DNA from: a virus
Lineage: Duplodnaviria > Caudoviricetes
Reading direction: 5' to 3' (one strand)
DNA length: 63,853 nucleotides
Virus record (IMG/VR): IMGVR_UViG_3300035148_000271
Coordinates: 1-63,853 of that record
The stretch's first letter is position 1. Every line of letters begins with the position of its first letter. Below are positions 210-46,145 of this stretch, in pieces. Position numbers and translations under genes: made by a program. Below the pieces are notes generated by a model that saw only the letters and a program-made list of their open reading frames with translations, made no database searches and had not been told where the DNA came from.

Positions 210-874
210 CAGACAGTTCCTTGGGCCTGACCGACGTTCGGGGTCGCGCCCTTCTGGTTCAGGTCAGGGGAGTACGCCAAGTCCTTGCTCGTCTTCTCGC
301 CCAGCATCAGGCGGAAGGCGTTCAGGTGGGCGGCAGCGATGTGCGGCTGGCGCGAGAACTCGGTGTCGATGGAGTAGGCCTTAAACAGGACGAACTCGAC
401 CACCGGGTTCAGGTACACATCGTCCAGCACCAACGTGTCGGACGTATTGAGCGCAATCGCCGGGATGGCCGACCACTTGCCATGCAGCACCGCACCGACC
501 TTGGCAGGCGGGTACACCTCAAACACCTTCGGGTACTTGTTGTCGTAGACCCAGTGCTTGATGGTGGTCGAGGCGGTGGCGGTGCGCCATGACGGCGCTT
601 GCCGGTCCAGCACGTCGCGGTCGATGTAGGTGACCACCTTGCCGTTGGCGTTGTGGCTGATGTCGAGCAGGCGCAGGGCCGAAATGGGCAAGGACTGCAC
701 GGCACCGGCCACCAGCGTCAGCGTGCTGGCGATGGGATACGAATCCGGCCGCACCGAAATGACGGCCAAGACGGCGTCATGCGTGTAGCGAATGAGACTG
801 GCTTGGGACCAGCGCTCATAGGTCGGATCGTTCAGCGCTTCCGTGGTCCGCGTCAGAACGTCGGATACCAGCAT
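209..874 (-). CDS. Phage head-tail adaptor/connector-like virion protein (221 aa)
   Basis: Position downstream of the capsid gene; pattern (LND...RWS...VRPD...FEVYPP) I associate with podovirus adaptors. Confidence 0.6.
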   Translation of the reverse strand: MLVSDVLTRTTEALNDPTYERWSQASLIRYTHDAVLAVISVRPDSYPIASTLTLVAGAVQSLPISALRLLDISHNANGKVVTYIDRDVLDRQAPSWRTATASTTIKHWVYDNKYPKVFEVYPPAKVGAVLHGKWSAIPAIALNTSDTLVLDDVYLNPVVEFVLFKAYSIDTEFSRQPHIAAAHLNAFRLMLGEKTSKDLAYSPDLNQKGATPNVGQAQGTV

Positions 875-894
875 GCACCCTCCCAGTGGATCAG

Positions 895-1917
895 TTAGAT
901 GCTGCCCCTTTTGCGAAGCTGGAACAGCACGTCATCCGGGAGAATCGACGCCAAAGCACCGCAAAACGCTTGGCATGAGCGCAAATGACCTCCTTCCTTC
1001 TGCCAGCTACAGAAACGGCACCAGACGCGCTCGTCCGGCACGATGCCCTGCACGGAATCGGCGCACCAGAAGGTAGTCTCCGGTTCGATGTGCGCCATGA
1101 TGGCGAAGGTCGGCGTACCGAACAGGCCGCCCAAGTGCGACATGCCACTGTCGTTTGCCACCAACAGGTGCGCGTGCGCGACCAGCGAACACATGTCCTC
1201 GGGCTTGGCGTCGATCCAGACCTTGGCCGGGTGATACATCCACGCATCGTGCTTGTGCTCGCTAGTGAGGGCGACGTAGACGCGATGGCCTTCCTTCGTT
1301 AGTTCGTTCACCAGCCGGGCATAGTTGGCGGCCGGCCAGTCACGCGCCGGTCCCACGCAGGACGAGTAGGGCGACAACACGATGTACTTGCCGCTGTCCA
1401 CTGGAGCGGGCTTGTCCACGCTGCGTGGACGGGCCGGTTCTATGGACACGGGAACGCTCGGGTACTGAACGCGGATGGCCCGCAGCGCCCAGTGCGGACG
1501 CGACTTGAGCGTCCCCCGGAAGCCTTCGGCCAACTGCTCCATGTAGTCCTGATTCACGTCCACGCCACCGCAGGTTTCGTCCTTCGGCAGTTCGCGCAGG
1601 GTCAGGTTGGGGTGGCCGGCCCACTTCACCCACTTGTAGTGGCGAGCGTTGTAGGTGACCTTGTAGCCGGCCTCGGCCAGCCCGCAGGCGGCGTACAGGA
1701 CGCAGATCGCGTCCCCGATCCCCATGGAGGTGGTGTACAGGGTGATGCCGTTTTCCTTGGGATCGAATGACAGCGCCCGGCCGCTCTTGGCGGCGACGTT
1801 GCCGAGATACCCAAGGGACTCGACCTCGGTCAGTTCGTCGTACTTCTTGTTGCCGGCTCTTTCCGGGGACCACTCGACCACCGCCCCGTTCTCCCGGTTC
1901 CTCAACAGCCGAATCAC
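895..1917 (-). CDS. Glycosyltransferase family 9 (heptosyltransferase-like)
   Basis: Motifs GIGDAI, ARDWPAANY, LLVANDSGMSHLGGLFGTPTFAI; probable GTG start at 1917 after a GGGGGA RBS. Confidence 0.8.
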   Translation of the reverse strand: MIRLLRNRENGAVVEWSPERAGNKKYDELTEVESLGYLGNVAAKSGRALSFDPKENGITLYTTSMGIGDAICVLYAACGLAEAGYKVTYNARHYKWVKWAGHPNLTLRELPKDETCGGVDVNQDYMEQLAEGFRGTLKSRPHWALRAIRVQYPSVPVSIEPARPRSVDKPAPVDSGKYIVLSPYSSCVGPARDWPAANYARLVNELTKEGHRVYVALTSEHKHDAWMYHPAKVWIDAKPEDMCSLVAHAHLLVANDSGMSHLGGLFGTPTFAIMAHIEPETTFWCADSVQGIVPDERVWCRFCSWQKEGGHLRSCQAFCGALASILPDDVLFQLRKRGSI

Positions 1918-1926
1918 AGTTCCCCC

Positions 1927-1957
1927 AAACAAAAAGGGCCGACCCGAAGGCCGGCCC
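1927..1957 (-). terminator. Rho-independent terminator after the major capsid gene
   Basis: Minus strand GGGCCGGCC-TTCG-GGTCGGCCC followed by TTTTTGTTT. Confidence 0.85.
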
Positions 1958-1989
1958 AAGAGCGCTCTAGGAAACGCTCACGGAGATGC

Positions 1990-2979
1990 TTACTTCATCA
2001 CGCGCGACCACACCAGCGCTTCCGGCTTGGTCGTCTTGAAGCCGAACACGTTCAGGCCACGGACGATATCACCGAAGGTCGACGTGCTGCGCAGCGTTTC
2101 CATCTTCACGAACTGCGAGGCGAACGACACCGCATCGCGCGTGCCGGCCATCACGTCCCACACGGCGTTGTCCGCCGCCGCGCCGGTGCCGCCAGTGGCG
2201 TTGCCAGACCCGAGGTCGGTCGCGGTATGCAGGTTGTTGTTCGTGTACAGCGTGAAGCGGTCGATCATGCCGAGACGACCGTTGCGCAGGATCGAGGTGC
2301 CGTCACCCGCCAGACTCGCGTCCTTCAGGTCCGACTTCTTGATCAGCGAAGCGATGTACGGCGGCAGGATGACCCAACGGCCCGTTTCCGGGACGTTTTG
2401 CTCGTCCAGCACCAGACCCATGTCGACGATCCATTCCAGCACGTTCGTCTTCGTGAGTTGCAGCGGAGCGCCGACCGCGCCAAGGTTCACCGAACTCGAC
2501 CGCACGCCGGCCGTGGCACCGTAGTTGCCGCTGGCCGCGTCATCGTAGACGGCATTGAACACCGTCTGCTCGATGGTGATCTTCATCTGCTCGGCGGCAT
2601 CCTGCGAGAACATGTCCATCAGGCGCACGTCAGCCTGCACCTTGTCCACATCGTCGGCCACGAACGAGAAGTACTTGCCCTTGTCGATCAGCAGTTCGAT
2701 GGGCGTGCTGGTCGGGACTTCGTTCGTCAGGGTCAGACCCTTCTGATAGTCCCGGATGGTGATCGTCGGAATGGACCGGATTTGAACCTTGTCACCGGCG
2801 TCCTTGATTTCACCTTCCCAGTCGTTGTTGGTGATGTCGCCCAAGCAGGTGCTGGCGTAGAACTTGACCGCCAGCTTGCCGGACCAAATCTCCGGAATGA
2901 ATTTCGTAGCGGCAGCGGAGCCGTACGAATCGACGCCAGAACCTGCGCCGTAATAGTCGCCAGAAACGGCAAAAGCCAT
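1990..2979 (-). CDS. Major capsid protein (329 aa)
   Basis: FIPEIWSGKL...NNDWEGEIKDAGDKVQI...FGDIVRGLNVFG pattern of P22/T7-like coat proteins; follows the scaffold and precedes a terminator. Confidence 0.9.
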   Translation of the reverse strand: MAFAVSGDYYGAGSGVDSYGSAAATKFIPEIWSGKLAVKFYASTCLGDITNNDWEGEIKDAGDKVQIRSIPTITIRDYQKGLTLTNEVPTSTPIELLIDKGKYFSFVADDVDKVQADVRLMDMFSQDAAEQMKITIEQTVFNAVYDDAASGNYGATAGVRSSSVNLGAVGAPLQLTKTNVLEWIVDMGLVLDEQNVPETGRWVILPPYIASLIKKSDLKDASLAGDGTSILRNGRLGMIDRFTLYTNNNLHTATDLGSGNATGGTGAAADNAVWDVMAGTRDAVSFASQFVKMETLRSTSTFGDIVRGLNVFGFKTTKPEALVWSRVMK

Positions 2980-3009
2980 GGTTTTCTCCCGCTACGCGCG
3001 GGGCGAGTC

Positions 3010-3951
3010 TTAGCGGACCCGACCTTCCGACTGCGCAGCAAAAATGTCTTGTTCGACCCTTGCTGCGTCTTCAGGAGAAATTCGACCTTCGCGGACGTTG
3101 CGGAAGAACGCCTGTATCTCGCCGCGATTCCAGATTCGTTTCGTGCTGGGCACGTCCGGCTGGCCTCGCATCGTGACAGGCGTCACCTGCTCGTTCGCGG
3201 GCGGCGCTCCATTCGACGCAACACCCACATTGCCGCCGTAAGACTTGAAGAAGAACGCCACGCGCTTCACGTCGAATCTTGCCGCTGCGTCGTCGAACAG
3301 AGACTGTCGGGTCGCCCCGGAGCCTTCGTCGACCTGATCCAGCCACTTCAGAAAACCGGTGTCCGTGTTCAGCGTTTCCCACTGGGGCACTGCGGCCGTG
3401 AGGTCGTTGAAAAACTGACGCCGAAGCGCAGCCTGACTCGTCTCCTCCGCACGCGCCAGCCGGTCTTCCAGATTCGGGTCGACCTTCTGCGCTGCTGCCG
3501 GGGCTGTCGGCACCACGCTTCGCGCAACGCGCTCGACGAGGCCGATGAACTCCGGGCCGTACTGCTCCAGTTCTTCCGGCCTGACGGCTGCCGGCGCTGG
3601 CGTCGGGGGCTGGGCCGTCATGCGCTGGCTCAGTTCCTCGACCTGCGTCTTCAGGGTTTGCAGTTCACCCTTGAGCTTCTTGTTCTCGTCGGTCAGACGA
3701 GGAACCTCATGGTTGTACTTGCCCTGAAGGACACGGTACATCTGCTCCCAGTCCTTGCCCGGTGCTTCTGGCAGGGCAGGACGCGGGATGTTCTCTGGCT
3801 CCAGTGTCGGCTGTGGAGCCGGCGCTGGGGCTGGTTCAGTTCCGGCTGGAGTCGCTGCTTCCGCTGGTGCGGGCGGCGTTGTTCCAGTCGCGCGTTGCTG
3901 CAATTCGGCGGCCCTGCGGCCGGCTTCTTCAACTGCTTTCGGTAACGGCAT
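3010..3951 (-). CDS. Capsid scaffolding protein (313 aa)
   Basis: Pro/Ala-rich, coiled coil, YRVLQGKYN and C-terminal IFAAQSEGRV; immediately upstream of the capsid gene. Confidence 0.75.
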   Translation of the reverse strand: MPLPKAVEEAGRRAAELQQRATGTTPPAPAEAATPAGTEPAPAPAPQPTLEPENIPRPALPEAPGKDWEQMYRVLQGKYNHEVPRLTDENKKLKGELQTLKTQVEELSQRMTAQPPTPAPAAVRPEELEQYGPEFIGLVERVARSVVPTAPAAAQKVDPNLEDRLARAEETSQAALRRQFFNDLTAAVPQWETLNTDTGFLKWLDQVDEGSGATRQSLFDDAAARFDVKRVAFFFKSYGGNVGVASNGAPPANEQVTPVTMRGQPDVPSTKRIWNRGEIQAFFRNVREGRISPEDAARVEQDIFAAQSEGRVR

Positions 3952-4038
3952 ACAACTCCTGTGAGCCTTGATCGAACGGGAGGCGAGCCTTTCGTGTTCG
4001 CAACCACGTCGTCAGGTAATCACCAACGACCAGCCGAG

Positions 4039-4260
4039 CTATGTTTTCGACTGGGACTCCATCGTGTTGAGGACGATCCTCAAGCACGCTGCACTGCCCT
4101 GATGGTGGAACAACTTGTTCGCGTCCGACAGTTGCTCAATCACCAGATGTTCTTCATGCAGGGACTGTTTCAGCCACTGCACCACCAACTCGTACTGCGG
4201 TCCTGCCACGCTGCGTAAGTACCGCAGCGATTCCCTGACCTTGTCGTTCGCCGCAATCAC
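4039..4260 (-). CDS. Hypothetical protein (73 aa)
   Basis: Coupled ORF in the head operon. Confidence 0.6.
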   Translation of the reverse strand: MIAANDKVRESLRYLRSVAGPQYELVVQWLKQSLHEEHLVIEQLSDANKLFHHQGSAACLRIVLNTMESQSKT

Positions 4261-4544
4261 TTCGGCATTTTCTTGCCGTACCAGCGACCTGCGCCGACCA
4301 GTCCTCCATTCGCATAACGCTTCACGTCGGAGTCATCGGCAACGCTGGCGATGCGCGGCTCCACGCCGCTGTCAGCCGCATCGCCCGCGCCCATTGTTTC
4401 AGTGGGCTTGTCGTCGTAGCCATAGCCACGATGCGTGCCCGGAGAGTTCGGCCCCGTTTCGCCGGACTTGGCCTTCTTCTTCCAGCCCTTGGCGGCCAGA
4501 TAGCCAGCCCCGACGCCGACCGCGAACGATCCCCAGTTGGCCAT
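4257..4544 (-). CDS. Hypothetical virion-associated protein (95 aa) with YANGGLV motif
   Basis: Start/stop overlaps with both neighbours. Confidence 0.6.
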   Translation of the reverse strand: MANWGSFAVGVGAGYLAAKGWKKKAKSGETGPNSPGTHRGYGYDDKPTETMGAGDAADSGVEPRIASVADDSDVKRYANGGLVGAGRWYGKKMPK

Positions 4545-4699
4545 CAGCAGCCCCGCTTTCCGCCGACCTTGCCGCCCTTCTTGTAGCCCTTGGCGTCCAT
4601 CATTTCTTCGCGCTTGGACCCTTCCTTCATGCCGTGCTTGCGGTCCATCATCTTGTCCTTGCCCGACTTCTCGAACGGCACCTTCTTCTTCATCGCCAT
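4544..4699 (-). CDS. Small Lys/Met-rich basic protein (51 aa) with YKKGGKV motif
   Basis: ATG at 4699 preceded by GAGG; MAMKKKVPFEKSGKDK... Confidence 0.6.
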   Translation of the reverse strand: MAMKKKVPFEKSGKDKMMDRKHGMKEGSKREEMMDAKGYKKGGKVGGKRGC

Positions 4700-5811
4700 A
4701 GCCTCGGTCGTTGCGCAGCGGTTGCGATCATTAGAAGCAGTTCCTCGTCGGTCGGGTTGATGATCCCTTTGGCCATCAAACGTCCAACACGTACGCGCCC
4801 TGCGTTTCTGAGAGTGACTTGTACGGTGCAATCGACTTTTGGGTCAACACGTGCGAAGGCCACGCTTTCGCACTCCACATCCACGGTCCCGACTTGCGAG
4901 CGTCCAGCACAACCTTTCAGTACAGCGCAGTTGTTTTCTTCCGCTTCCGCGCGGACGAAGCCCCGGGCGAAGTAGCCGGCAACAGATGACAGGCGCGCTT
5001 CAGCGTGGTCCTGCGAGACTTCCGCGAAGACGACAGGCCGTCCGATGCCGGCCGCGCCCTGCGCCTTGGACTTAATGACAACGACGGCATCGACCAGCGG
5101 GCGGATCGCGGGAGCGCGCTTGGAGCGGCGAGTGCCGGCCGGCTCTTCGGGTTGCTCAACGACGGCGTCGGCGCTGAGCGCCATGGAGGCGGTATCGCTG
5201 CCTTCCTCGGCGGCCAACTCGAAGGTGCCGGCGCGTTGCAGGCCGAACTCGGCTGTGTCCGACTCCTCCGTGACAGCCAGAGAACTGTTGGCCGTGACGA
5301 CAGAAGCGACTGTGTCGGACTGTTCCGTGGCCGCCAGCGATGTCGTGGCATTGACGGCAACGGCCACCACGTCGCTGCCTTCTGTGGCGGCCAGCGCAGC
5401 ATTGGCGTTGACCTGCAACGCGACGATGTCACTGCCTTCGGTCGCGGCTAGTGAAGCGTTGACGTTGACCCGGGCGGTCGCGTCGTCACCGGCTTCCGTG
5501 ACTTGCAGACGGACGTTGACGGTGGCCGTCAGGGCGGCGGTGTCGCTGCCCTCGGTGGCCGCCAGTGAAATGGGTTCGCGGTAGACATCCGCCTCAAAGG
5601 CGGCAACGTCCGACCCTTCGGTGACGGCCAGACTGACATTGGCCGTGCTGACGAAAGCGACAATGTCGGCGCTGTCGGTCGGGGCCAGCGAGACGGTGAC
5701 GTTGACCGCACAGTCGGCAACGTCCGATCCCTCGGTCGCCGCTAGGTCAAGATTGGGGATGCCGCTGGCGGCGGCCCCCAGCAGTGGGCTGTAGCCGCCG
5801 CTGAATGCCAT
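4690..5811 (-). CDS. Repeat-containing virion protein (373 aa)
   Basis: About ten copies of an L-A-[AV]-T-E-x-S-D repeat spaced about 18-22 aa. Confidence 0.7.
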   Translation of the reverse strand: MAFSGGYSPLLGAAASGIPNLDLAATEGSDVADCAVNVTVSLAPTDSADIVAFVSTANVSLAVTEGSDVAAFEADVYREPISLAATEGSDTAALTATVNVRLQVTEAGDDATARVNVNASLAATEGSDIVALQVNANAALAATEGSDVVAVAVNATTSLAATEQSDTVASVVTANSSLAVTEESDTAEFGLQRAGTFELAAEEGSDTASMALSADAVVEQPEEPAGTRRSKRAPAIRPLVDAVVVIKSKAQGAAGIGRPVVFAEVSQDHAEARLSSVAGYFARGFVRAEAEENNCAVLKGCAGRSQVGTVDVECESVAFARVDPKVDCTVQVTLRNAGRVRVGRLMAKGIINPTDEELLLMIATAAQRPRLWR

Positions 5812-35075: not shown

Positions 35076-38000
35076 CTACTGGCGACTCTCGATTTCGGCC
35101 CGATAGAACCGCGCGTTCCACTCCCGCAACAGTTGCTGGCGCTGTTCCTCGACCTCCCGGCGGGCGCGTTCCTTCTCCGCGAACGACAGTTCCTTGTCTT
35201 CCGCGATCTGCACTTCCTGTAGGCGCAGGGAACGCATGGCCCGCTCGACGTTCTGCACGCTGCGGCCCAGCGAGGCAATCGTGGACCGCCGGTCGATCCG
35301 CTCCAGCACCTCGGGCCGGTCGCTGTCCGCGAACTTCTTCGCCTCGTCCAGCGCCTGCAAGGCCTGCTTCTTGGCTTCCATGAAGTAGGCGGTGTCGGAG
35401 CGCACGTTGCCGTGCTTGTACCACTGGCGGACGAACGGAATCTGATCCTTGCGGGCGACCTCGTCGTAGTTCAGTTCTGTCAGGGCGATGGCGCTTTGCG
35501 TCCCATCCATCAGGAACGATCCCAGTCCGCCGGTGTAGTAGCGGGCGAAGTTCTTGATCGTCTCCGGGCTGACGCTGATGGCCCCCGGGACCGACTTGGT
35601 GCCACCGGTGGCCTCGTTCAGCCATGTGGTGAACTGTTGCAGGGCTGTGCCCCGGGTGTTGCCCCAGTAGCGTTCGCTGTCCGGCACCGGCTGTCCTGAC
35701 AGCTTCTCCTCGTCCGGCATGAGGGGAGCGCCGGTCGCTTTCTTGTTGGACGCCAACTCAAACAGCGGGTCCAGCACCGTCGGCACCAAGGCCGCTGTCG
35801 GCTCTTCCATCGTGCCCAGCGGGTTGAAGTGCTGCGACAGGCTCATCAGTTGATCCAGCCCCACCGCAGACTGGGGGCGGCCCCGCCACAGGTCGGCAAT
35901 GCCGTAGCCCAAGTTCACGAAGAAGCCGTAGCCGTACGGCAGGGGAATCGTCCAGCGGTCCCCGGTGCCGTCGCCTTTCATAATGACCAGCGAGCGCTGC
36001 TTCTCGTAGCCCGGCAAGCGGTCCCAGTACGGGACTTCTTCCTCGTCCTTGTCGTTGGCTCCCAGCAGGGCGAACATGATCCCCAGCGCCACCAAGGCTC
36101 CGGTCATGGCGGCGAACTCGGCCGGGTTCTTCTTGGCCGCCTGCATGATCCGCGTGGTGCCTTGGACCGCCGGGTTGAAGAACAGGTACAGGCTCGACAG
36201 GATCGGCGTGAGTTGGCCCTTGCGGTTGAAGTTGACCGTCAGGTTCTTGGCGATGCTCGCCGCCTCGGCCTTGCTCTTGCCCTGCTCGACGGCGTTCTTG
36301 TAGGCCGACACCCGGATCGCGTTCTCGATCATGCCGTTGGCGGCCATCACCACGTCTTCCAGCTTCTGGACGGCTTCCTTGGTGGCGTACCACGCCTTGC
36401 GGCCGGTGGTCTGCGTGTGGGCCGCCTCCATCAGTGACTGAAGCTCCCGCACCCGCTCGTCCATGTCCCCGAAGATGTAGAAGCCGGCCTTGCCGCCTTC
36501 CTGCTGGTAGTCCAGATACCACTTGGCAGCGGGCGTCGTCTCGTCCTTGCGGAACTCCACGTCCCAAATCCCCTTCATCATGGGGAAGACATCCTTGGCC
36601 ACAGTGGCTGCGTACTTGGTCCCGCCGACGTTGCCGGCGTGGATCATGCCGGTCAGGAAGTCGCGCGTGAAGTTGATCGTGGTGAACACCGGGTTCAGGC
36701 TCGTCCACATCTTGGCGAGGAAGCGATTCACGCCGGCCCATGCCTGCATGATCCGGTTCACGTCCGCTGCGTCACGGTCGAACAGTCCGCCCTTCGCCAG
36801 CATGGCGTCGCGCATGCCCGGGTCTTTCAGCCAGATCGCGTACTCCTGCCCGTAGTGCTTGACGATGATGGTTTCACCCGGTCGGTCCAGTACCCGGTTG
36901 CTGTAGCGGACCTCACCCTCCAGCAGGCCGTGGGCGTTTACGGTGCCGCTCTTGTAGAACGACGCCATCTGCTCGATCTTGTTGACCGCCCACAGGGCCG
37001 GGTCCGGATTGGCCAGCACGAAGTTCAACAGCGCCTTGCCGACCTTGTTCTTCTCGGCCCGCACGATGGCGCGTTCGTGGTCGAGGATGATGTTCTCCAG
37101 AATCTGCCCGGCCCGGGATTCCCGGCCCTTCATGCGCAGTGACTCCGGACCCCGTACGTCGAATCCGGTGCCGGTGCCAGTGCCTTGCTGGCCCAGTTCG
37201 TCGATGATTTCAAAGCCCTTCAGCGGCACGTAGTTCTTGAAGCGCGACTGCCAGCCGTTGTAGACCGTGGGCGTGATCAGGCCGGCGTTGACCATGGTGT
37301 CGCGCGTCATCTGCGCGATGTTCCAGAAGCGATCAGCATGCTTCTTGAGCGTTGCGTAGTCCGGCGACTGCTGGAAGATTTGCAGGATGCGGGCGGCTTC
37401 CTTGTTGGTCATGCCCGAGCCGCCGTCCGGCATGGTCGGGTTGATCGCCGCAATCTCGCGGTTGCGTTCCTGTGCATGCGTGGCGTACATCAGCATCGCC
37501 ACGTCTTCCGGGGCCACGCCATCCTTGCGGACATCGTCCAGTGTCGGACGAACGATCTTGTCCTTGAACCGTTGCAGCTTGTAGGCGACCTTGCCGTGGT
37601 AGCGCTCTTCGGCCAGCACCACGTTGGCCGCTTCGCTGACCTGTCCGCCGGCGGCTTGGACGACCCGCTGCGCCACGCCCATGCGGTTGAACCTGTCCTG
37701 CAACAGTCGCTGGACTGTTTGCGTGCGGGTTTCGGCGGGCAAGCGGAAGTTGTAGCCCTGCACCGCCGGCGCACGGGCAAACTCCACGCCTTCCACAACA
37801 TGGGCCGGAACTGCCGGCCAGCCGTAGCGCTTGAGCATCGTGTACGTGCCGTTGCCATCCAGCACTGTGTACGTGCCGTCGCCGTTGGCTTCCACGTCAA
37901 TCGGGTCGCGCGGACTCAGCACGCCATCGGCCACGGCTTGGAAGCGCTTGGGCGAGTTCTGGCCGCCCTTCTGGTTCTCTTCCTCGGTCTTGCCGGACAC

Positions 38001-41000
38001 CAGCGCATTGATCGGAATCATCTGCGTGGACGAGTCCATCTTGAAGAACAGGCGCGGCTGGAACGGGATCGACGCCGGCACTTCCTGCGTGTCGATGACG
38101 CGCTTCATGTACGTCTTCACGTCTTCGCCCGGCAGGCGCGGCGCGTAGGTGCGCTGGAACAGCGACAACTGTGGCGGCGTCGCCTTGATCTGCTCGACGA
38201 CCTTCTTGAACTCGATGGGCTGCGCCAGCCGCCATTCGTTCACGTCGGTGTAGCCGTGGGCAATGGCCGCCTGCTTCAGCGCCGGCAGGTCTTCCTGCAT
38301 CGTCTGGCTGACGCGCTGGAAGTCCACACGCGGCATGGTGGCCAGTACGTTGCGGATGGCTTGGGCCGTCAGCCGGTAGCCGGCGTCATCGAACGGCGTG
38401 TCCTTGCTGATGTTCTCCGGATCGAGGTCCACCGTGGCGGCCTTCAGCCGGTCCATGGGAATTATTCCCATCAGTTCGGCTGTGTACGCACTGTTGTTTT
38501 CAGCCGGGAAACTGTAGACGTGCTGGATTTCGCCCTTCGTCCCGGACGTGTCGATGCCGATCCGGTCCGGCGTCCCTTTCCCCGTCAGCCCCTCGCCGCC
38601 GTTCATGGCGTCGCCAAGGCCCAGCGGCTTCAGGGCCGTGACCTTGTAGACGTAGACCGGGGCGTCTTCGTCGAACCCGACCGGGATCGGGCCGTCATAG
38701 CCGTCCGTGGCGGTCAGGAAGCGGGCCACTCCCTCGATGTTGCCGGCGTTGGTGGCAGCCAGTTGGCTTCGGTTCGCCTTGCGCAGGGCAAGGAACGCCT
38801 GTCCCACCTGTGGAGTGGACTGTGCATTCAGGTCCGCCATGCCACGCTGGAACAGGGGCAGGCCGCCGGCGACCTTCTCTTTCAGGTACGGCGTCAGCGG
38901 AAAGCCCTGTTGCATCGTCTGCTTGCGCTGCGCAATGTCCGCCAGTTCGGACTCGCGCCGCGCTTGCTCGTCGCGGGCTGCCTGCTCGGACAGCGTTTGC
39001 AGCACGATCACCCGTTGACCGCCTTCGTACTGCGCAACCTCCCACTCGTTGTCACGATTGCGTTCCACCGTGACCTGAACTTCTGCGCCGGCCGTTGCAT
39101 TGCGACGCGCCGCCAGACGCGTCGCCTCGGCCTCGGTCAGGTTCATTGCACTGTCGCCATCAACGATGGTTCCGGTGCCCGGCTCAAACGTGCCGTCATT
39201 CCAGTAGCGAATTACCTCCCACCACTTCGTCTGGCCATCGACCGTATACGGCTCGGCCCGGAACACGTACTTCGGTTTCGGAGAGGCCTGAATGTTCACG
39301 AACTGCGGATCGACCTGTACGCCGACATCCAGCTTCTGCAACAGCTTGTTCACGCGCAGCGGGACGATGGTGTCGTAGAAGGCCTTCATGCCGCCGCCGC
39401 CGACATCCAGTTGCTTGTCCTTGATGTGGCCGTGATCGTTCTCGGCCATCTGTTGCGCGATGTCCTTGCCGAACGCTTCGGCCAGTTGCTTGCCGTTCAA
39501 CTCGCCGCCGGCGTAGTTGGCGGTGACGATCTTTCCGGTGGCGCGATCCGCGATCAACGTCAGCATGTTGTCGCCATCGGCTGCCTGTACCAGATCGGCA
39601 TTGATCAGGATGTTGTTCGGGCCGCCGTTCCATCCAGACGGGTTCGGATACCACTGGATGTTCTTGACCACCCTGCTCAAGTTGTAGTGGCTGGCGTTCT
39701 GCGCTCCCGTCGCCCATGCAATCGCGTCGTAGTCGTTCTCGGTGCCGTACAGCACCATGCGCTTGATGGCCAGATCGACGTATTCGTTGGTGCTGCCAAC
39801 AAATGGGCCGGGAGCGGAACGATTAGCGCCAACCCTTTCAATCGCGCGTTCGACTTCGCCACGATCTCTTGATGGGAACACCATGCGCCCATCAGGGGAG
39901 CGAGCAACCCATGTTTCTTCCCCGATATGCGGCAAAGTGGCGCGAACGATTTCGTATTGTTCCTTGCCCCTTCCTTCGCGTACCTTGTCAGCCCAGTCAG
40001 ATTGAATCTCTTCGATGAACAGAATCTTCTTGCCGTCCGCATAGCGCGTCTTGAAGCGGATGTGGGCGACGACGTTCGGCACCTTGTCGCCGTAGTGCCC
40101 GCCCCGGTACTGCGGCTTGGCAAGGGGAAGCCGGTCAAGGCGCTTGTTGATGTCCATCAGCGCCGTCGTCGCCTCGTCAATCTGCCGGTTGATGTCAGCG
40201 ATTTCTTCCGGCGTCGCATTCGGGTGCGTCTTGATCCAGCTATCGGCTTGCGACAGCACGGCATGCTCGGTGCGCTTTTGCTGTTGTAGCGTCTCGATCA
40301 TTATGTCGACGTCACGTGCCGGGATATGCAGCAGTAGTTCGGTGTAACCATCACCACCCGGTAGCGTCCACTTCTCGTACTCGGGCCGGCCAACGACGGG
40401 CAGTTCGTCCTTGTTCAGTTGGTCGCGCGCTTCGAGGGCGGCCTGCATGTCCTCGAACGGACCGGCGGCGCGTTCCAATGTGCGGGTGCGATAGACGTAG
40501 TGCGGCGGGATCGGTGAGCGCCGGCCCTTCGCATCCATCACTTCGTACGTGCGCTGGTCGCGTAAGGCGGCGTCTTCCACCTTCACGCCGCTGGCGTCGA
40601 GGAAGTAGAGGATGTCGTCCTTGGTGAACTTGCGATTCGCCATGGACAACATGTCGAGCAGGCCAGACCAGTCGACCTCGGATTGCTTGACCTTGCCCTT
40701 GTTGACCCAGTTGCGCACCGTCGCAATCCAGCCTTGCGGCGGCAGCGTCTTGTCGGGCAGCGTCGATACTTCCTTGCTGAGTGCGCTGTAGAAGCGATTG
40801 AAGTCGAGGCTCGGATGCTTCTCTCTCCACTCCTGCGCGAGCGACAGGAAGAGCGGGAAGTTCTTCTGGACGAGGTCGTCCACATCCTTGTAGCCGGCCT
40901 TCTCCGCTTCGGCTTGCAGCCACACGTACTGGTCGCTGTTGTCCAGCGAGCGCGAGAAGTTGACGAGGTCGGCCGGGCGCAGGAACTTGCGCTTGCCCTT

Positions 41001-44000
41001 GTCGGCCAGCCGCAGTTCGCTGCGAGCGGGTTCGGGCAGGACGTTGGCCTTGTCGTGATCGAGGTACAGCAGGGGCGTGCCACCGTCTTTCGGCGGCTTC
41101 TCGTTCTTCAGCCACTTGGTAATGGAACCGGGACCGAGCCAGTAAGCGCTTTCGAGCGCATGTACTTCCTTGCCGTAACGCTCGCGTCCAGAGAAGGTGT
41201 TGGTGCGTCCCTCGACGTAGGTGTTCCTGCGCAGGATGGCGATCAACGGCTTGCCGTTCACCACCTGATCGGTAATGAACACCACCGAGTCGGTGCCGCC
41301 TGCCGACTTGAACACCGCCACCGGCCGCTCCAAGGACTTGCCGATGTCTTCCAACTGTTGGGCTGTCAGGCCGACGCGAACGCCGTACTTGCCGGTGACG
41401 ATCTTGCGCACCTTCTCGGGCGTGACCACCAGCGCCAGCTTCCTGATGAAGCCCAGCGCTCGCAGAATCGGCTTGCTCTCCATGACGCCCAGCGGGTACG
41501 GCTCGTACTCGCCGTCGTCCACGATCTTCTGGATTTCGGTACGACTGAACGCCACCGTCTCGGGCGGCTGTGTGATCGGTACGTCCTTGTTCAGGACGAC
41601 CGCCATGTTCTGGCGACGGTTGATGTAGCCGTCGAACCCGGCGTCGAGGATCGCGCTTTCCATCGCGTTCAGGCGCTGCGGCAGCGGCTGGTCGCGGTTG
41701 TAGTTCAGCGCCGGCGTGCCATCCCACAGGTTGTCGAGCGCCGCACGGTGGGCAACTGGCCCCAGCCCGGCTTCACGCTTCGGCAGTTCGCCCTTCTCGG
41801 ACAGGTAGAAGTAGACGCGCTTCTTGATGCGCGGGTCGGTGGACTGCGCCAGACGCGGCAGTTCCTCGCCCTTTATGCCGGTGCCGAACTTCGCGCCCGC
41901 CAACACAGTCCGTGGGCTGTGCGAGTAGTGGACCGCTTCGACTCGTTGCAGGTCGACGCCGATTGCCGGGTCGTTGGGATCGGGGTGGATGCTCCAGTCC
42001 GGGTCGTACTCGCCCGGCAGCATCATGTCCTGCTCCCAGCCCCGGGGCTTCAGGACGGTCTGGTCGGTCCAGACGCTGTGCTTGACGATCAGCTTGCGCA
42101 GATCGGCGGCAGACGTTTCCTTCACTGGCGCGTAGCCCATCACCTCCCGCAACGTGTCGGGCGTGTACCAGCGGTCGCTGATCGGCTCCCACACGTTGCC
42201 GGTCTGGCGGTCCTTGACGAGGCTGTGCCAGATGCGCAGCGGAGCCATGGGGTGGCCGTTGACTACGCCGAGGATCAGCGAGTAACGCTGTTCGTCCGTC
42301 TTATCGAGGAAGGCGTCGTCGAACGCAACCTTGCGGCCGGCTAGGACATGGCACTTCCCAAGTCGCTTCCGATCTTTAACGGCTTCAGCAGCGACAGCTT
42401 CAGCCCGGGTTCCAATGGGACTGCTTTCTGACTTACCGTACGGAACACTTTCCCACTTCTTGGTGCGGGCGAACTCCAGTTGGCCCTGCTCTGTGGGGCT
42501 GGTAGGCTGGACTGATTCAGTGATACCATTTGGTTGTTCCTTGGAGGTTGCGATGGCACTACCAGACAAGTTCCCGCCCGGCACCGAGTTCTTCGATTGC
42601 GCTGAAGGCACGCCTGTTTCGGTCACTTGGGAAGGCGACTTCCCGATTCCGTTTGCTTGGGACGCCGGCACCAAGCGCCCATTCAAATACACCACCGTCA
42701 TGTCGGACGGCGTGCCAATCGACGAGGCAGCGTTCCGCGACTTGGTCGCCGCCTCGGCATAGATCACGCGCGACTGCCGTACCGCGTTTTTGTAGATCAC
42801 TTCCTCGGGGAAGGTCAGGCGCTGGGTATACGGATCGCGCTTGCCGTCTAGGGCGCGAATGATTTCGTACCAGTAGTGACCGAACTCCTTGGTCAGCCCG
42901 CCTTCCTTGGCGTAGAACATGGCGGCCGTGTTGACCTGCACTTCGATCTTCATGCCGTCGCGGACCACGTAGATGAGTGCGTCCTTGTAGCCGGCCTTGT
43001 CCTGCCTCTTCTTCGACAGCCCTTCCTGCCAGCCGTTGCGCTTCAACTCCACCGCATCGAACCGCTTGCGCAACCGCCGCATGATGTCGGGCAACGCCGT
43101 ATTCACGTCATGCACGATGATGGTTGAGCGCAGGGCATCCTTCAGCTTGTAGGCATTGCCCTCGTAGTCCTCCATTACCTTTTCAAAGCCGCGCGGCACG
43201 CTCTTGATGGCGTGCTGCTTGGCTTCGGCCGGCACTACCCCGCCGGACTTCGCGGCCACCACATCCAGATCAGCCAGTACATCCGGGGCCAGCTTCTTGG
43301 CGTGTTCCAGTACCTGCTTCAGGGCGGCGTATGGCTTGGAGATAGACGGGTGCCGATCCATCTCCCGCTGCGACACCTGCTCGCCCTTGATCAGCGCCTT
43401 CTGCACGTCCTCGGCCCGCTGGAACGGCAGTTCGTCCGCAGGCGCGGCCTTGGGTTCGACCGGTTGCGCCGGGACCGCCTTCTTCTTCGCCGCTTTCTTT
43501 GCAACTTTGGGCGGGGCCGTGGCGGTCGCTCCCCCGGTCGCAGGGGCCGTCTCTTTGGCGGCCTGCTTTGCGACTTTTTCTGCGGCCTGCTTGGCGCGAT
43601 GGCGCTGTTCCCATTCCACGAAGGCGCGGGCCGACGCCTCGCGCATCTTCTGGATACTGCCCTCGCCTTTCAGGAAGCCGACGTTGATCATGGCCGAGTG
43701 CAACTTGTCGATCAGTTGCTTCACTGCCGTCATCATGCGTTTGGCGAAGGCAGTGTCCGGTGACAGTTCAAAGACCCGGTTCCAGAATCCTTGGTCTTCC
43801 CACATTTCGCCCGTCACCTCGGACGCAATCTCGTTGTCGAACACCAAGTCGATGTCGGATTGCGTGGCCGCGCCCTTCGACTCAATCATCATCTGCCGCC
43901 CAAGTTCTGCCTTGAACTTGGATACGTGCTTGGAATCAGCGTGCTGCTGCGCGGCTGCTTTCAGCGCGTCGTATAGGTCCGGGTGATGCACCTTCATCTG

Positions 44001-46145
44001 GTGCGTCAGTTCGTGGCCCATCGTGTTGCGGACCGACCTCTCCCCGGCCGGGCGATTCAGGTTGACGATGATGACCGCGCCACTGTGCATCGACGCGCCC
44101 ATCGGCGGCGCAGCCATCACTGTGTTGCCGTTGGTGTCGCGCACCTGATCGCCAAAGTTCACGAACAGGGTTTCGATCCCGAAGGCTTTCTTGATTGCAG
44201 CGGCGAGCTTGGCCTGCTCGGTATCCGGGGCGGCAAGTGTGATGGTGCTGCGGTCGAGCGTCATCCGCTCGCCGGGCTTGCGACCGGAATTGATGTTGGC
44301 CTCTACGCCAGCGTGCAGATCGGCCAGCAGCGACTGCTGCGTTGCAGCAGCTTTCTTCTCGGAAGTTTTTGAAACCGAGGGTTGACCTTCGTTAGAGGTC
44401 GGAGTTGCCGCTACGGTGGCGACAGGCTGTGTTCCCGGCTGTTGTTGATCGGGGAATTTGGTCGCCAGAAGGCCCGAAAGCTGTTGGTCGGCAAGGGCGT
44501 CCGTACCTTGGGGTAGGCCTTCGGTGGTCGGAGTCACTGCGACCCCGGGCACTTCCGTCGCCGGGGCAGCAACAGTCGGTTCGACCGGCGAGGACACAGC
44601 CGCCGGCTGGGTTTGCGGCTGGCCAGCCACATAGCTGTCGACCGCTACATCCACCGCTTGCAGGAACTGCGGGACGTTCTGCGCCATGGCGGCTACGTTT
44701 GTATGGGCAGCTTCTGTGCCGACCATTCGCAACGCATCCTTGGCGACCTCGCCGTAGCCCTCCTGCTCCATCTTCACCAGCAGGGACTGGCGAGCGGCCG
44801 GGTCCATCCCTTCCATCTTCACGGCCAGCGCCGCCAGTGCATCGGGATTGTTGCGGGCCGCCTCAAAGACTTCCTTCGGTTGCAGCGCGGTCGGCTCTTG
44901 GCCGGCCGCCATGGCAGCGGCCTGCGCCTCGTCGTACTGCTGAACGTAATGTTCGACGTAGCGAGCGTCGTTCGTCAGTTCAATCGGCTTGCCTTGGGCG
45001 ATCTGGTCGAAGGCGTATACCTGCCACGCTGCCCGCAGGTCGGGCTGTTCGGGCGGCAGCGCATTCCAGACCTGTGATGCCGCAATCGCCCGTTCGGCCG
45101 GATCGGCTTTGGGATCGGTCAGCGCCTTCTCGGTCGCCTTCATGCGAGCGACGTTGTGACCGGCAATGAAGGTGCCGGGCACCAGCGTCATCAAGGCGGT
45201 CGGCACGATGACTTGTGCGGTGTCGCCCCACGATGCACCCGGGCCGCCGGCATAGGCTTTCTCGACCTCGGCTTGGCTCGACTGGGCGACCATCTCCTCG
45301 CCAATCTCCTTGGTGGTCGACAGTCCCAGTACCTTGGCGGCCTGCTTGATGATGTTGCTGTTGCCGAACATCTTCTTGACCGCGTCCTTGGTCACGGTCT
45401 TGACGCCCAGCGCTCCGCTGCCTTTCAGCAAAGCGAAGTCCAACAGATCAGAGCCGAACTCGGTGCCGACCTCGATCAGCCCCTGCAAACGGCCCGACGC
45501 CATGCCGGCAGCGTTCGCCTCTTCGTCCGACTTGCCGATGGATTTCTGGTACTTGTAGGCGCTCTGGTAGGCCTCTTCAGCTTGCTGTCCACCGAAGAGC
45601 GGTAAGGCCGCCAAGGAACCAACGACGTAGCCCGCCATGGCCCCGGGGATGGCCCCCACGCCGCCTACGGTTGCACCGATGCCTGCGCCTACCGCTGCCC
45701 CGGCCAAGGCCGGTCCGCTCGACAGCGGGGTGTTCTGGCCAGCGGCGTACGCGCTGCCCCGGATCGACAGTGGATTCGCTTCCCGCAGGCGCTGGCTGGT
45801 AGCGCTTTCCTGATACTCAGGATTTTCCTTGGCCCACTGTTCGCCCTTGGCGGAAATGGCTTGTCCGCGTTCGATCAGGTCGGGCGAGTTGATTTCTCGA
45901 CCAATGAACGTGGCGGTATTGCCAACCGCAGTCGGCAGTCCCTCCATGGTGCCGCGCACAACCCCTCGGCCTGCTTCCTTCAGGCCGCCGACGAATCCTT
46001 CATCCTCGCTTGGTGATGGCGTGGCGCGCGGCTCGGGGCTGCGCATCGACCGCAACGAGGACAACAGGGGATCGTCGTCCAGCGCCTTGCGGCGTTGATC
46101 GACTTCCGGAAACAGGTTGCCAAGTTGGTCGAGTGCGCCGGGCAT
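35076..46145 (-). CDS. Large polyvalent (DarB-like) ejection protein, 3689 aa
   Basis: N-terminal Gly/Ala hydrophobic region, HELTH metallopeptidase, RelA/SpoT-like, Cys/His papain-like, ART-like, PBECR-like, ParB-like and C-terminal LPD38-like (NLTVNFNRKG, LFFN) segments. Confidence 0.85.
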   Translation of the reverse strand: MPGALDQLGNLFPEVDQRRKALDDDPLLSSLRSMRSPEPRATPSPSEDEGFVGGLKEAGRGVVRGTMEGLPTAVGNTATFIGREINSPDLIERGQAISAKGEQWAKENPEYQESATSQRLREANPLSIRGSAYAAGQNTPLSSGPALAGAAVGAGIGATVGGVGAIPGAMAGYVVGSLAALPLFGGQQAEEAYQSAYKYQKSIGKSDEEANAAGMASGRLQGLIEVGTEFGSDLLDFALLKGSGALGVKTVTKDAVKKMFGNSNIIKQAAKVLGLSTTKEIGEEMVAQSSQAEVEKAYAGGPGASWGDTAQVIVPTALMTLVPGTFIAGHNVARMKATEKALTDPKADPAERAIAASQVWNALPPEQPDLRAAWQVYAFDQIAQGKPIELTNDARYVEHYVQQYDEAQAAAMAAGQEPTALQPKEVFEAARNNPDALAALAVKMEGMDPAARQSLLVKMEQEGYGEVAKDALRMVGTEAAHTNVAAMAQNVPQFLQAVDVAVDSYVAGQPQTQPAAVSSPVEPTVAAPATEVPGVAVTPTTEGLPQGTDALADQQLSGLLATKFPDQQQPGTQPVATVAATPTSNEGQPSVSKTSEKKAAATQQSLLADLHAGVEANINSGRKPGERMTLDRSTITLAAPDTEQAKLAAAIKKAFGIETLFVNFGDQVRDTNGNTVMAAPPMGASMHSGAVIIVNLNRPAGERSVRNTMGHELTHQMKVHHPDLYDALKAAAQQHADSKHVSKFKAELGRQMMIESKGAATQSDIDLVFDNEIASEVTGEMWEDQGFWNRVFELSPDTAFAKRMMTAVKQLIDKLHSAMINVGFLKGEGSIQKMREASARAFVEWEQRHRAKQAAEKVAKQAAKETAPATGGATATAPPKVAKKAAKKKAVPAQPVEPKAAPADELPFQRAEDVQKALIKGEQVSQREMDRHPSISKPYAALKQVLEHAKKLAPDVLADLDVVAAKSGGVVPAEAKQHAIKSVPRGFEKVMEDYEGNAYKLKDALRSTIIVHDVNTALPDIMRRLRKRFDAVELKRNGWQEGLSKKRQDKAGYKDALIYVVRDGMKIEVQVNTAAMFYAKEGGLTKEFGHYWYEIIRALDGKRDPYTQRLTFPEEVIYKNAVRQSRVIYAEAATKSRNAASSIGTPSDMTVVYLNGRLVPASQANGIGKSPSQVTETGVPSAQSKNSVPGGNLSGSAIATSKEQPNGITESVQPTSPTEQGQLEFARTKKWESVPYGKSESSPIGTRAEAVAAEAVKDRKRLGKCHVLAGRKVAFDDAFLDKTDEQRYSLILGVVNGHPMAPLRIWHSLVKDRQTGNVWEPISDRWYTPDTLREVMGYAPVKETSAADLRKLIVKHSVWTDQTVLKPRGWEQDMMLPGEYDPDWSIHPDPNDPAIGVDLQRVEAVHYSHSPRTVLAGAKFGTGIKGEELPRLAQSTDPRIKKRVYFYLSEKGELPKREAGLGPVAHRAALDNLWDGTPALNYNRDQPLPQRLNAMESAILDAGFDGYINRRQNMAVVLNKDVPITQPPETVAFSRTEIQKIVDDGEYEPYPLGVMESKPILRALGFIRKLALVVTPEKVRKIVTGKYGVRVGLTAQQLEDIGKSLERPVAVFKSAGGTDSVVFITDQVVNGKPLIAILRRNTYVEGRTNTFSGRERYGKEVHALESAYWLGPGSITKWLKNEKPPKDGGTPLLYLDHDKANVLPEPARSELRLADKGKRKFLRPADLVNFSRSLDNSDQYVWLQAEAEKAGYKDVDDLVQKNFPLFLSLAQEWREKHPSLDFNRFYSALSKEVSTLPDKTLPPQGWIATVRNWVNKGKVKQSEVDWSGLLDMLSMANRKFTKDDILYFLDASGVKVEDAALRDQRTYEVMDAKGRRSPIPPHYVYRTRTLERAAGPFEDMQAALEARDQLNKDELPVVGRPEYEKWTLPGGDGYTELLLHIPARDVDIMIETLQQQKRTEHAVLSQADSWIKTHPNATPEEIADINRQIDEATTALMDINKRLDRLPLAKPQYRGGHYGDKVPNVVAHIRFKTRYADGKKILFIEEIQSDWADKVREGRGKEQYEIVRATLPHIGEETWVARSPDGRMVFPSRDRGEVERAIERVGANRSAPGPFVGSTNEYVDLAIKRMVLYGTENDYDAIAWATGAQNASHYNLSRVVKNIQWYPNPSGWNGGPNNILINADLVQAADGDNMLTLIADRATGKIVTANYAGGELNGKQLAEAFGKDIAQQMAENDHGHIKDKQLDVGGGGMKAFYDTIVPLRVNKLLQKLDVGVQVDPQFVNIQASPKPKYVFRAEPYTVDGQTKWWEVIRYWNDGTFEPGTGTIVDGDSAMNLTEAEATRLAARRNATAGAEVQVTVERNRDNEWEVAQYEGGQRVIVLQTLSEQAARDEQARRESELADIAQRKQTMQQGFPLTPYLKEKVAGGLPLFQRGMADLNAQSTPQVGQAFLALRKANRSQLAATNAGNIEGVARFLTATDGYDGPIPVGFDEDAPVYVYKVTALKPLGLGDAMNGGEGLTGKGTPDRIGIDTSGTKGEIQHVYSFPAENNSAYTAELMGIIPMDRLKAATVDLDPENISKDTPFDDAGYRLTAQAIRNVLATMPRVDFQRVSQTMQEDLPALKQAAIAHGYTDVNEWRLAQPIEFKKVVEQIKATPPQLSLFQRTYAPRLPGEDVKTYMKRVIDTQEVPASIPFQPRLFFKMDSSTQMIPINALVSGKTEEENQKGGQNSPKRFQAVADGVLSPRDPIDVEANGDGTYTVLDGNGTYTMLKRYGWPAVPAHVVEGVEFARAPAVQGYNFRLPAETRTQTVQRLLQDRFNRMGVAQRVVQAAGGQVSEAANVVLAEERYHGKVAYKLQRFKDKIVRPTLDDVRKDGVAPEDVAMLMYATHAQERNREIAAINPTMPDGGSGMTNKEAARILQIFQQSPDYATLKKHADRFWNIAQMTRDTMVNAGLITPTVYNGWQSRFKNYVPLKGFEIIDELGQQGTGTGTGFDVRGPESLRMKGRESRAGQILENIILDHERAIVRAEKNKVGKALLNFVLANPDPALWAVNKIEQMASFYKSGTVNAHGLLEGEVRYSNRVLDRPGETIIVKHYGQEYAIWLKDPGMRDAMLAKGGLFDRDAADVNRIMQAWAGVNRFLAKMWTSLNPVFTTINFTRDFLTGMIHAGNVGGTKYAATVAKDVFPMMKGIWDVEFRKDETTPAAKWYLDYQQEGGKAGFYIFGDMDERVRELQSLMEAAHTQTTGRKAWYATKEAVQKLEDVVMAANGMIENAIRVSAYKNAVEQGKSKAEAASIAKNLTVNFNRKGQLTPILSSLYLFFNPAVQGTTRIMQAAKKNPAEFAAMTGALVALGIMFALLGANDKDEEEVPYWDRLPGYEKQRSLVIMKGDGTGDRWTIPLPYGYGFFVNLGYGIADLWRGRPQSAVGLDQLMSLSQHFNPLGTMEEPTAALVPTVLDPLFELASNKKATGAPLMPDEEKLSGQPVPDSERYWGNTRGTALQQFTTWLNEATGGTKSVPGAISVSPETIKNFARYYTGGLGSFLMDGTQSAIALTELNYDEVARKDQIPFVRQWYKHGNVRSDTAYFMEAKKQALQALDEAKKFADSDRPEVLERIDRRSTIASLGRSVQNVERAMRSLRLQEVQIAEDKELSFAEKERARREVEEQRQQLLREWNARFYRAEIESRQ
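42553..42762 (+). CDS. Nested antisense gene (69 aa), candidate antitoxin of the RelA/SpoT-like domain
   Basis: GGAGG RBS at 42543-42547, 5 nt before ATG; extended -10 TGaTACCAT at 42521-42529; globular aromatic/acidic sequence. Confidence 0.65.
   Translation: MALPDKFPPGTEFFDCAEGTPVSVTWEGDFPIPFAWDAGTKRPFKYTTVMSDGVPIDEAAFRDLVAASA

Follow-up and report, generated by a model that had tools for sequence, protein, structure and literature searches.

In the 63,853-nucleotide (nt) genome of a tailed phage (Duplodnaviria; Caudoviricetes), held in IMG/VR as record IMGVR_UViG_3300035148_000271 and called here, at its full length, the window, a small gene on the plus strand lies within the reading frame of a giant virion protein encoded on the minus strand. 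The small gene (P0002) encodes 69 residues and is located behind a domain of the giant protein that resembles the toxin Tas1. Comparison of related sequences indicates that this antisense open reading frame (ORF) is a real, conserved gene tied to the synthetase domain. We consider it probable that it is a Tis1-like immunity gene, nested antisense in a toxin-bearing polyprotein which reads through it as a hydrophilic linker. A preliminary description of this DNA had noticed the arrangement and had proposed a toxin/immunity cassette; we confirm what was observed, and most of the interpretation stands.

The nested antisense gene and its conservation

The ORF occupies positions 42553..42762 of the plus strand and ends with the stop codon TAG at 42760-42762. 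A Shine-Dalgarno (SD) sequence, GGAGG, is placed at 42543..42547, 5 nt before the ATG, and an extended -10 box, TGATACCAT, at 42521..42529, its hexamer beginning 29 nt before the ATG; the ORF, the ribosome-binding site and the -10 box had all been pointed out before, and all are present at these coordinates. The ORF also fits, as had been claimed, between the end of the RelA-like domain and the next F-A-R motif of the giant protein (42465-42473), starting just past the synthetase domain and ending inside the last helix of that domain. Over the 11 kb of the giant gene, the plus strand has no GGAGG besides that of the small gene, and the minus strand has 9; a rough base-composition estimate gives about 19 for each strand, so that the motif seems to be avoided on both, and most of all on the antisense one.

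Taken alone, a 69-residue ORF is not beyond chance in this place, because the giant gene contains 42 antisense open runs of at least 69 codons (14, 15 and 13 over the three frames), the longest having 909 codons; the ORF at 42553-42762 itself lies inside an open run of 158 codons. Searches of Pfam, PHROGs and NCBIfam assigned its product to no family. Neither the region (blastn/tblastn) nor the small protein had a match in the phage GenBank collection, and a pattern scan of viral contigs with the single protein returned no relative. A pattern scan by the alignment of the synthetase domain yielded 39 IMG/VR loci with DNA, all viral contigs, and a second scan with the small protein's own motif added 36 more viral loci and one contig of an alphaproteobacterial metagenome-assembled genome.

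Whether homologous RelA-like modules conserve the antisense ORF had been named as a check, and they do: the small protein is found in 73 of 77 sources, and in all 73 a RelA/SpoT homologue (RSH) domain is adjacent, on the opposite strand and convergent. These 73 sources reduce to 42 distinct sequences and to 27 clusters at 70% identity, in loci whose GC content ranges from 33 to 72%. Among the 42 distinct loci the small gene is fully nested in 37, partly overlapping in 4 and separate in 1, and the relative frame, which shares third codon positions, is identical in all 37 nested and all 4 partly overlapping cases. When only the 39 loci found via the RSH domain alone are considered, 35 have the small gene. 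In the 27 loci that carry the tail behind the domain, as in the window, the antisense frame sharing third codon positions is open over the tail and closes at one common position, the Tyr codon of the last helix on the sense strand; up to 8 stops occur there in the other antisense frames. The antisense translations form one family, with the pattern LP.SFP.GT.FFDVEG.PV....AWD...PR.F...SA.RNGAPI...EF..LV. A collection of public proteins contains 73 called proteins of 60-130 residues that match the family, named 'hypothetical' and none having a Pfam domain; the small protein of the window is missing from them.

A hidden Markov model (HMM) built from nested copies only also detected the small protein in loci with little or no overlap. 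In L007/8 the toxin ORF is fused to a portal domain, and the small gene, free of overlap, stands 291 nt past its end. In L005 and L022-27 the synthetase gene stands alone (304-316 residues) and shares with the convergent small gene no more than the last 49 nt of the latter; in L019 the overlap covers 127 of 204 nt. The L007 protein (371-4900, 1509 residues) starts with a portal domain (Pfam Phage_portal_3, E 4.9e-13) and has the synthetase domain internally; its small gene stands separate and convergent at 5197-5376.

Start codons in the 42 distinct sequences are ATG in 37 and GTG in 5, four of the latter having GGAGG before them. As a null for the 23 nested clusters, the codons of each sense protein were redrawn, without altering the protein, according to the codon usage of its locus. 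The start is kept in 23/23 clusters against 11.9 expected, an SD-like motif in 19/23 against 4.8, the open frame in 23/23 against 15.1 and the stop in 23/23 against 17.5; all four occur jointly in 19/23 clusters, 1.18 being expected. When the antisense protein was scored with an HMM leaving out its own cluster, it stood above the redraws by z 3.6-5.4 in 21/23 clusters, 0/300 redraws reaching its score. Both results bear out the codon-level selection on the plus strand, and the conservation of the ribosome-binding site, for which a check had been proposed. In the mirror test the small protein was kept, its codons were redrawn and the sense tail was scored. The antisense frame is under stronger constraint than the sense frame.

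The -10 region gave a similar picture. A TAnnnT box starting 13-34 nt before the start codon is present in 22 of 27 clusters (23 counting L007, which was left out of the cluster count and whose box, TGTTAAAAT, was counted separately), and same-sized control windows have it in 3-8 of 27. Among nested clusters it is found in 18/22 against 4.1 expected, and the TGn-extended form in 8 against 0.8. The extended -10, claimed earlier for the window alone, is thus a conserved feature.

On the sense strand the giant ORF reads through the small gene as residues 1129-1198 (42552..42761, minus strand). After VIYAEAA (42767-42747) the residues Ser, Thr, Asn, Gln, Gly and Pro make up 54% of 70 positions, compared with 32% in the small protein. 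By the genetic code, antisense F, V, L and I codons are read in the shared-third-position frame as N/K, T, S/R and I/M on the sense strand, which accounts for the hydrophilic read-through. In 11 clusters the toxin ORF runs on for more than 1.1 kb behind the small gene and the module is internal; in 12 clusters the toxin ORF ends 58-406 nt past the small gene, and the read-through forms a C-terminal tail. This stretch had been called a Ser-rich low-information linker; the Ser-rich composition stands, whereas the stretch is conserved and so not of low information. Of 5699 candidates in a word-indexed protein search, 7 matched at E<=0.001, one of them being P0001, the giant protein of the window itself, and the closest relative, P0003, has 62% identity over the whole segment. 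When 1.84 billion representatives were scanned in full with HMMER, 318 matched at E<=0.001. Of 154 stored homologues, 116 align past query residue 290, through the linker, and 80 past residue 325. The fixed pattern of the linker in a 45-sequence alignment is ..SRN.AS..G.P....N.R...SQA....TG.PSTSKNS.P.GN...

The synthetase domain, the small protein and their predicted complex

The synthetase-like motifs listed in the preliminary description were all found in the translation of the giant ORF, on the minus strand: IKSVPRGFEK at 43208-43179, KDALRSTI at 43142-43119, GYKD at 42992-42981, EVQVNT at 42944-42927 and HYWYE at 42878-42864. They belong to a domain of residues 935-1135 (42741..43343, minus strand), assigned from phmmer, predicted fold and invariant residues to the RelA/SpoT type, Tas1/Apk-like. 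The phmmer search matched residues 876-1165 to Tas1, a type VI toxin (PDB 6ox6_A), with E 4.4e-7. The Pfam model RelA_SpoT (PF04607) stays under its gathering cut-off for the domain of the window (15.1 vs 27 bits, E 0.028); among relatives it scores 30.8 bits in L019, above the cut-off, and 19.2 bits in L023.

An AlphaFold2 (AF2) model of residues 935-1135 had a predicted local distance difference test (pLDDT) value of 91.6. Its top PDB match in Foldseek is again Tas1, 6ox6_A (E 1.2e-7, template-modelling scores 0.61/0.63), out of 54 matches with E<=0.001. SAS1, RelP, SpoT, CapRel and FaRel follow below it in the list, pointing to a synthetase fold common with solved alarmone synthetases. In 20 aligned sequences, that of the window included, the residues K47, R51, K55, K68, D69, R72 and T74 are invariant, as are G118, Y119, D121, E134, Q136, K146 and H156. 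The basic, D..R, GY.D, E.Q and H..Y positions are all invariant in this set; we take these motifs to be syn1-5. Given the sequence and fold matches to Tas1 and the invariant motif positions, we assign the domain to the RelA/SpoT-type synthetases of the Tas1 kind, divergent but intact-looking.

The small protein was modelled by AF2 from a 20-sequence alignment with pLDDT 91.7 and a predicted template-modelling score (pTM) of 0.76. The predicted order of elements is three strands, a helix, a short strand and a terminal helix. Foldseek gave no match for it in the PDB at E<=0.001. In a structural ranking of 48,161 chains Tis1 (6ox6_B) was placed second (Z 4.6, root-mean-square deviation 3.6 Å, 59 of 76 residues aligned), tied with 2ra8_A; the rows below this tie have Z 4.1 or less, about 0.5-0.9 lower. 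A repeat of the ranking had the same outcome. The match to Tis1 gains weight because in 6ox6 this protein is paired with Tas1, to which the toxin domain itself is matched best. The nearest cluster of a language-model Atlas is named Tis1 immunity (score 0.76), which we use as a lead only. The predicted model thus suggests a Tis1-like shape in a sequence family distinct from the Pfam family Tis1_ImmP (PF24154). A PDB sequence search with the family profile matched periplakin (E 0.0066), a candidate set aside as weak. The chain tied with Tis1, 2ra8_A, is a structural-genomics protein of Bacteroides fragilis, of which the N-terminal 78 residues match the small protein (Z 4.6); this part might be another Tis1-like domain, fused to something else.

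A prediction of the complex had been suggested as a further check. The model of the 201-residue domain with the small protein, each supplied with its alignment, had a score of 0.89 (0.88, 0.90 and 0.89 in the runs), and the best of three controls had 0.00. Contacts agreed between runs to at least 95%, and the pLDDT of the partner was 91. The predicted interface on the toxin includes the invariant residues K55, K68, D69 and Y119 and the near-invariant D59, Y60, R102 and Y159. On the side of the small protein it involves residues 28-35 and 43-55. The proposal that the small protein is a candidate antitoxin is therefore backed by its modelled Tis1-like fold, by the lead from the Atlas and by a predicted complex over conserved residues.

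The preliminary description had left two activities side by side for such a domain, synthesis of (pp)pApp or pyrophosphorylation of tRNA CCA ends. By analogy, the domain is most likely a (p)ppApp-making toxin: because its partner is of the Tas1/Tis1 (Apk/IapK) kind, (p)ppApp is the more likely product and the tRNA reaction the less likely one.

A probable toxin-immunity module on two strands: weighing and precedents

The mechanism that we favour can be put as follows. On the minus strand, the giant virion polyprotein, which is probably injected, would carry a Tas1/Apk-like synthetase, likely a (p)ppApp-making toxin. On the plus strand, the 69-residue gene, with its own extended -10, SD sequence and ATG, would give a small folded Tis1-like protein. 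Host RNA polymerase would transcribe this gene independently of the late operon, and its product would bind over the conserved active-site residues of the toxin, as Tis1 does on Tas1; any cell with the phage genome would thereby be protected from the toxin. The polyprotein would read the immunity gene backwards, in the shared-third-position frame, as a hydrophilic linker, so that toxin and antidote could be inserted in frame together, as a single module. In this scheme the toxicity, the neutralisation, the expression and their timing are what we infer. We also lean towards the view that the module is a two-strand one in the full sense, the antidote gene being nested antisense with its promoter, ribosome-binding site and stop, the products of the two strands binding each other and the host-transcribed antidote perhaps timing the end of the toxin's pulse.

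Several results weigh against the reading of the small gene as a Tis1-like immunity gene. Of the 39 toxin-first loci, two (L020 and L039) have no small gene at E<=1e-3, and a third without a small-gene match, L034, is cut by the contig end. L035 gives a weak family match only (E 0.003) with no start found, and the copy in L009 (2905-3288, minus strand of its locus) begins at a GTG and continues beyond the stop that is usual in the family. The L035 copy, at about 2908-3231 on the minus strand of its locus, is nested and degenerate-looking; both copies may be decaying immunity genes inside intact polyproteins. In the redraw test with the HMM, L012 and L028 were weak, 14/300 and 10/300 redraws reaching the score of the real protein. 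The mirror test gave the sense tail an excess too (z 0.5-3.9, with 0/300 redraws reaching it in 3/23 clusters), so part of both excesses may be shared ancestry. The resampling nulls ignore phylogeny, and kinship among loci can inflate the tests; all relatives are metagenomic contigs. A scan of 42100-43300 for the two-hexamer consensus found no full sigma-70 promoter. Public sequencing runs contained at most 0.10 of the sampled words of the window, one metatranscriptome reaching 0.06.

The likeness to Tis1 and the predicted complex have to be read with similar care. A Z of 4.6 is modest, such values being common, and it is shared with the unrelated-looking 2ra8_A. Tis1_ImmP matches 0 of 20 family members at E<=1, nothing in the whole record at E<=10 and nothing in the genome to which locus L040 belongs; as a positive case, one of 401 genomes did contain a canonical Tis1 that the same model detected (E 1.1e-36). 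Comparison by hhalign with one canonical Tis1 gave a probability of only 1.9%, with a colinear likeness of C-terminal motifs (DSARRNGAPIS..EF vs NDALRFGREISREEY). The mark of 0.89 was reached by 58 of 80 solved complexes and by 2 of 110 mismatched pairs, counts that hold roughly only because our own alignments were supplied for the complex studied here. The high score may moreover reflect a likeness memorised by the model more than independent evidence, since the Tas1-Tis1 complex is solved.

A different role for the same binding is unlikely, although it is to a large extent a variant of the immunity reading and in silico indistinguishable from it. The small protein may bind the domain and act as a regulator, timer or assembly chaperone instead of a simple antidote; for example, the domain might be silent until packaging, or a pulse of injected activity might be ended once the incoming DNA is transcribed. 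Binding is predicted, and the gene has its own host-type promoter apart from the late operon. A search with the HD_4 model (Aph1-like, (p)ppApp-hydrolase-like) had no match in the record, so that control would rest on the small protein alone. In the text of PMC10083569, as far as it bears on this point, a full-length MuF-fused toxin was less toxic than the isolated domain. The nearest fold match and the predicted site fit classical occlusion of the Tis1 type, which argues for immunity.

It is very improbable that the conserved element is the sense peptide, a functional disordered tail of the toxin, and that the antisense ORF is an automatic by-product, sense residues fixing two of three antisense codon letters. 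The tail does align across homologues of about 30-38% identity and has the excess seen in the mirror test. The small ORF nevertheless remains intact in loci whose sense ORF ends prematurely or is located elsewhere (L019, L005, L022-27, L007/8), and sense synonymous sites are constrained in ways that keep the ATG, the SD sequence, the stop and the antisense residues. The upstream -10 is conserved, the antisense product is modelled with confidence (pLDDT 91.7), and the antisense excess is larger (z about 4-5) than the sense one, all of which disfavours a by-product.

We give equally little credit to a role of the plus-strand transcript mainly as antisense RNA against the giant mRNA, whether type-I-like or by head-on interference, with coding secondary. 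The conserved promoter does face the late operon, and in 37 of 42 distinct loci the whole of the small gene overlaps the toxin mRNA. The conservation of the protein, the SD sequence, the start codon and the confident fold would be needless for an RNA, and the gene of L007/8 overlaps no toxin ORF at all; RNA and protein roles could coexist. Finally, the many long open runs and the absence of a known family might suggest that the ORF is open by chance, opposite a GC-rich gene; this is refuted for practical purposes by its conservation across 27 clusters at widely different GC contents and by the structural and signal evidence.

The immunity reading agrees best with the Tas1-Tis1 (Apk1-Tis1) pair, a type VI effector-immunity system of Pseudomonas aeruginosa (PDB 6ox6). 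Tas1 is the toxin's best match both in sequence and in fold, Tis1 is the tied-best fold match of the small protein (69 residues here, 77 in Tis1), and docking over conserved catalytic-site residues is predicted here. The two systems differ in that the Tis1_ImmP model misses the small protein, and in their layout: in a canonical tas1-tis1 locus (L077) both genes are on one strand, tis1 coming directly after tas1 and overlapping it by 11 nt, whereas here the genes are convergent and nested. The carrier of Tas1 is a PAAR protein; here it is a phage polyvalent protein.

Tis1-type proteins neutralise (p)ppApp synthetases by blocking the acceptor site, as described in the relevant parts of PMC11782079, PMC10083569 and PMC12226406. 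Also close are the MuF-fused phage (p)ppApp synthetases of the Apk2-IapK(-Aph1) kind, which, in the text of PMC10083569 and PMC12226406, likewise combine a Tas1-like domain on a phage-borne, virion-associated carrier with a small Tis1-like protein that is the specific antidote. Their immunity genes follow the toxin gene in that text, supplementary diagrams aside, whereas here the gene is antisense (PMC10083569, PMC12226406). Apk2-IapK-Aph1 also has a hydrolase immunity, and this record has no Aph1-like HD_4 gene; unlike in MuF-fused Apk2, Pfam found no MuF domain in the relatives of C-terminal type L036, L010 and L006. In the toxSAS system FaRel-AT2faRel a (pp)pApp synthetase is neutralised by a Tis1-type domain through acceptor-site occlusion (PMC11782079, in the part concerned). 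That system differs in being a chromosomal operon with a multidomain antitoxin, of which the N-terminal domain is Tis1-like, and the same part of the article mentions no antisense overlap. RelA/SpoT domains of polyvalent and MuF proteins were described by Iyer et al. 2017 (PMC5512222) as effector modules of giant multidomain injected proteins; within the article's text portion a nested gene is not described, and the words 'antisense', 'overlapping' and 'immunity protein' do not occur.

The arrangement also differs from two classical ones. In type I toxin-antitoxin systems the antitoxin is a non-coding RNA, whereas the antisense ORF here is conserved, folds confidently in the model and has an SD sequence and a start codon. 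Colicin immunity genes lie on the opposite strand with their own constitutive promoter facing the toxin gene. They stand beside the toxin gene, which is not known to be translated through them, while the small gene here lies inside the toxin reading frame. In the literature searched, figures and supplements aside, we met with no account of a Tis1-like gene that is nested or convergent: 'antisense', 'opposite' and 'convergent' have 0 occurrences in PMC10083569, PMC11782079 and PMC12691689, 'antisense' has 0 in PMC5512222 and PMC5576092, 'opposite strand' 0 in PMC5512222 and 'opposite' 0 in PMC5576092. The kind of toxin-immunity system is hence already known, and what is new is the distinct Tis1-like family together with the gene arrangement.

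Functional protein genes overlapping in antisense are rare and disputed in bacteria and phages. The present case offers deep conservation (loci of 33-72% GC), kept signals, low-overlap copies for comparison and a functional link between the products of the two strands; if true, it would be among the best-supported and most widespread antisense overlapping protein-coding pairs in prokaryotic viruses. It suggests a way for phage polyproteins to carry toxic effector domains safely, shuffled together with their antidote, and among the Tis1-type inhibitors of (p)ppApp synthetases the small proteins would constitute a separate sequence family. It further suggests that immunity genes can escape gene callers, and that the 'low-complexity linkers' of giant proteins can hide genes of the opposite strand.

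The phage record and the giant virion protein

The record is linear, with a GC content of about 62% and a CheckV completeness of 100%, and looks complete. PHROG scans identified proteins including a terminase, an adaptor, a major head protein, a tail fibre and internal virion proteins; among the 20 other ORFs, where structural genes were seen, the same scans found no integrase or repressor.

The giant ORF (P0001) extends over 35076..46145 on the minus strand and encodes 3689 residues. Pfam places LPD38 at residues 3374-3572 and MuF_C at residues 1592-1680, domains which, by sequence match, mark it as a polyvalent virion protein. Its neighbours are genes for an internal virion protein, a transglycosylase and a tail fibre, and the polyprotein is probably injected.

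Along the giant protein a motif search found 9 F[ASQ]R motifs on the minus strand, at 43416-43424, 42465-42473, 41541-41549, 40950-40958, 38844-38852, 38313-38321, 38151-38159, 37773-37781 and 35541-35549, the preceding residue usually being hydrophobic or acidic. Two of them flank the putative toxin-immunity cassette, promoter included: F-Q-R at residue 908 (43416..43424) on the N-terminal side and F-A-R at residue 1225 (42465..42473) on the C-terminal side, beyond the promoter of the small gene. The sequence EFARTKKW is conserved also in the 62%-identical relative P0003. These motifs may mark the borders of modules or sites of processing.

Upstream of the synthetase domain, an HExxH motif (MGHELTHQ) is present at residue 711 (about 44001-44015, minus strand), with a faint Pfam WLM match (E 0.16). 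This region may be a zincin-like metallopeptidase module, a kind common among polyvalent proteins according to the relevant part of PMC5512222. Two further plus-strand frames of the giant gene are long, 37185-39872 (895 residues) and 40683-42344 (553 residues), each counted from a start codon. The open runs around them have 909 and 592 codons, and both lie in the frame that is antisense to the giant gene codon for codon. The GC content at third codon positions (GC3) of this gene is 0.82, and we take both frames for the usual by-product of high GC3.

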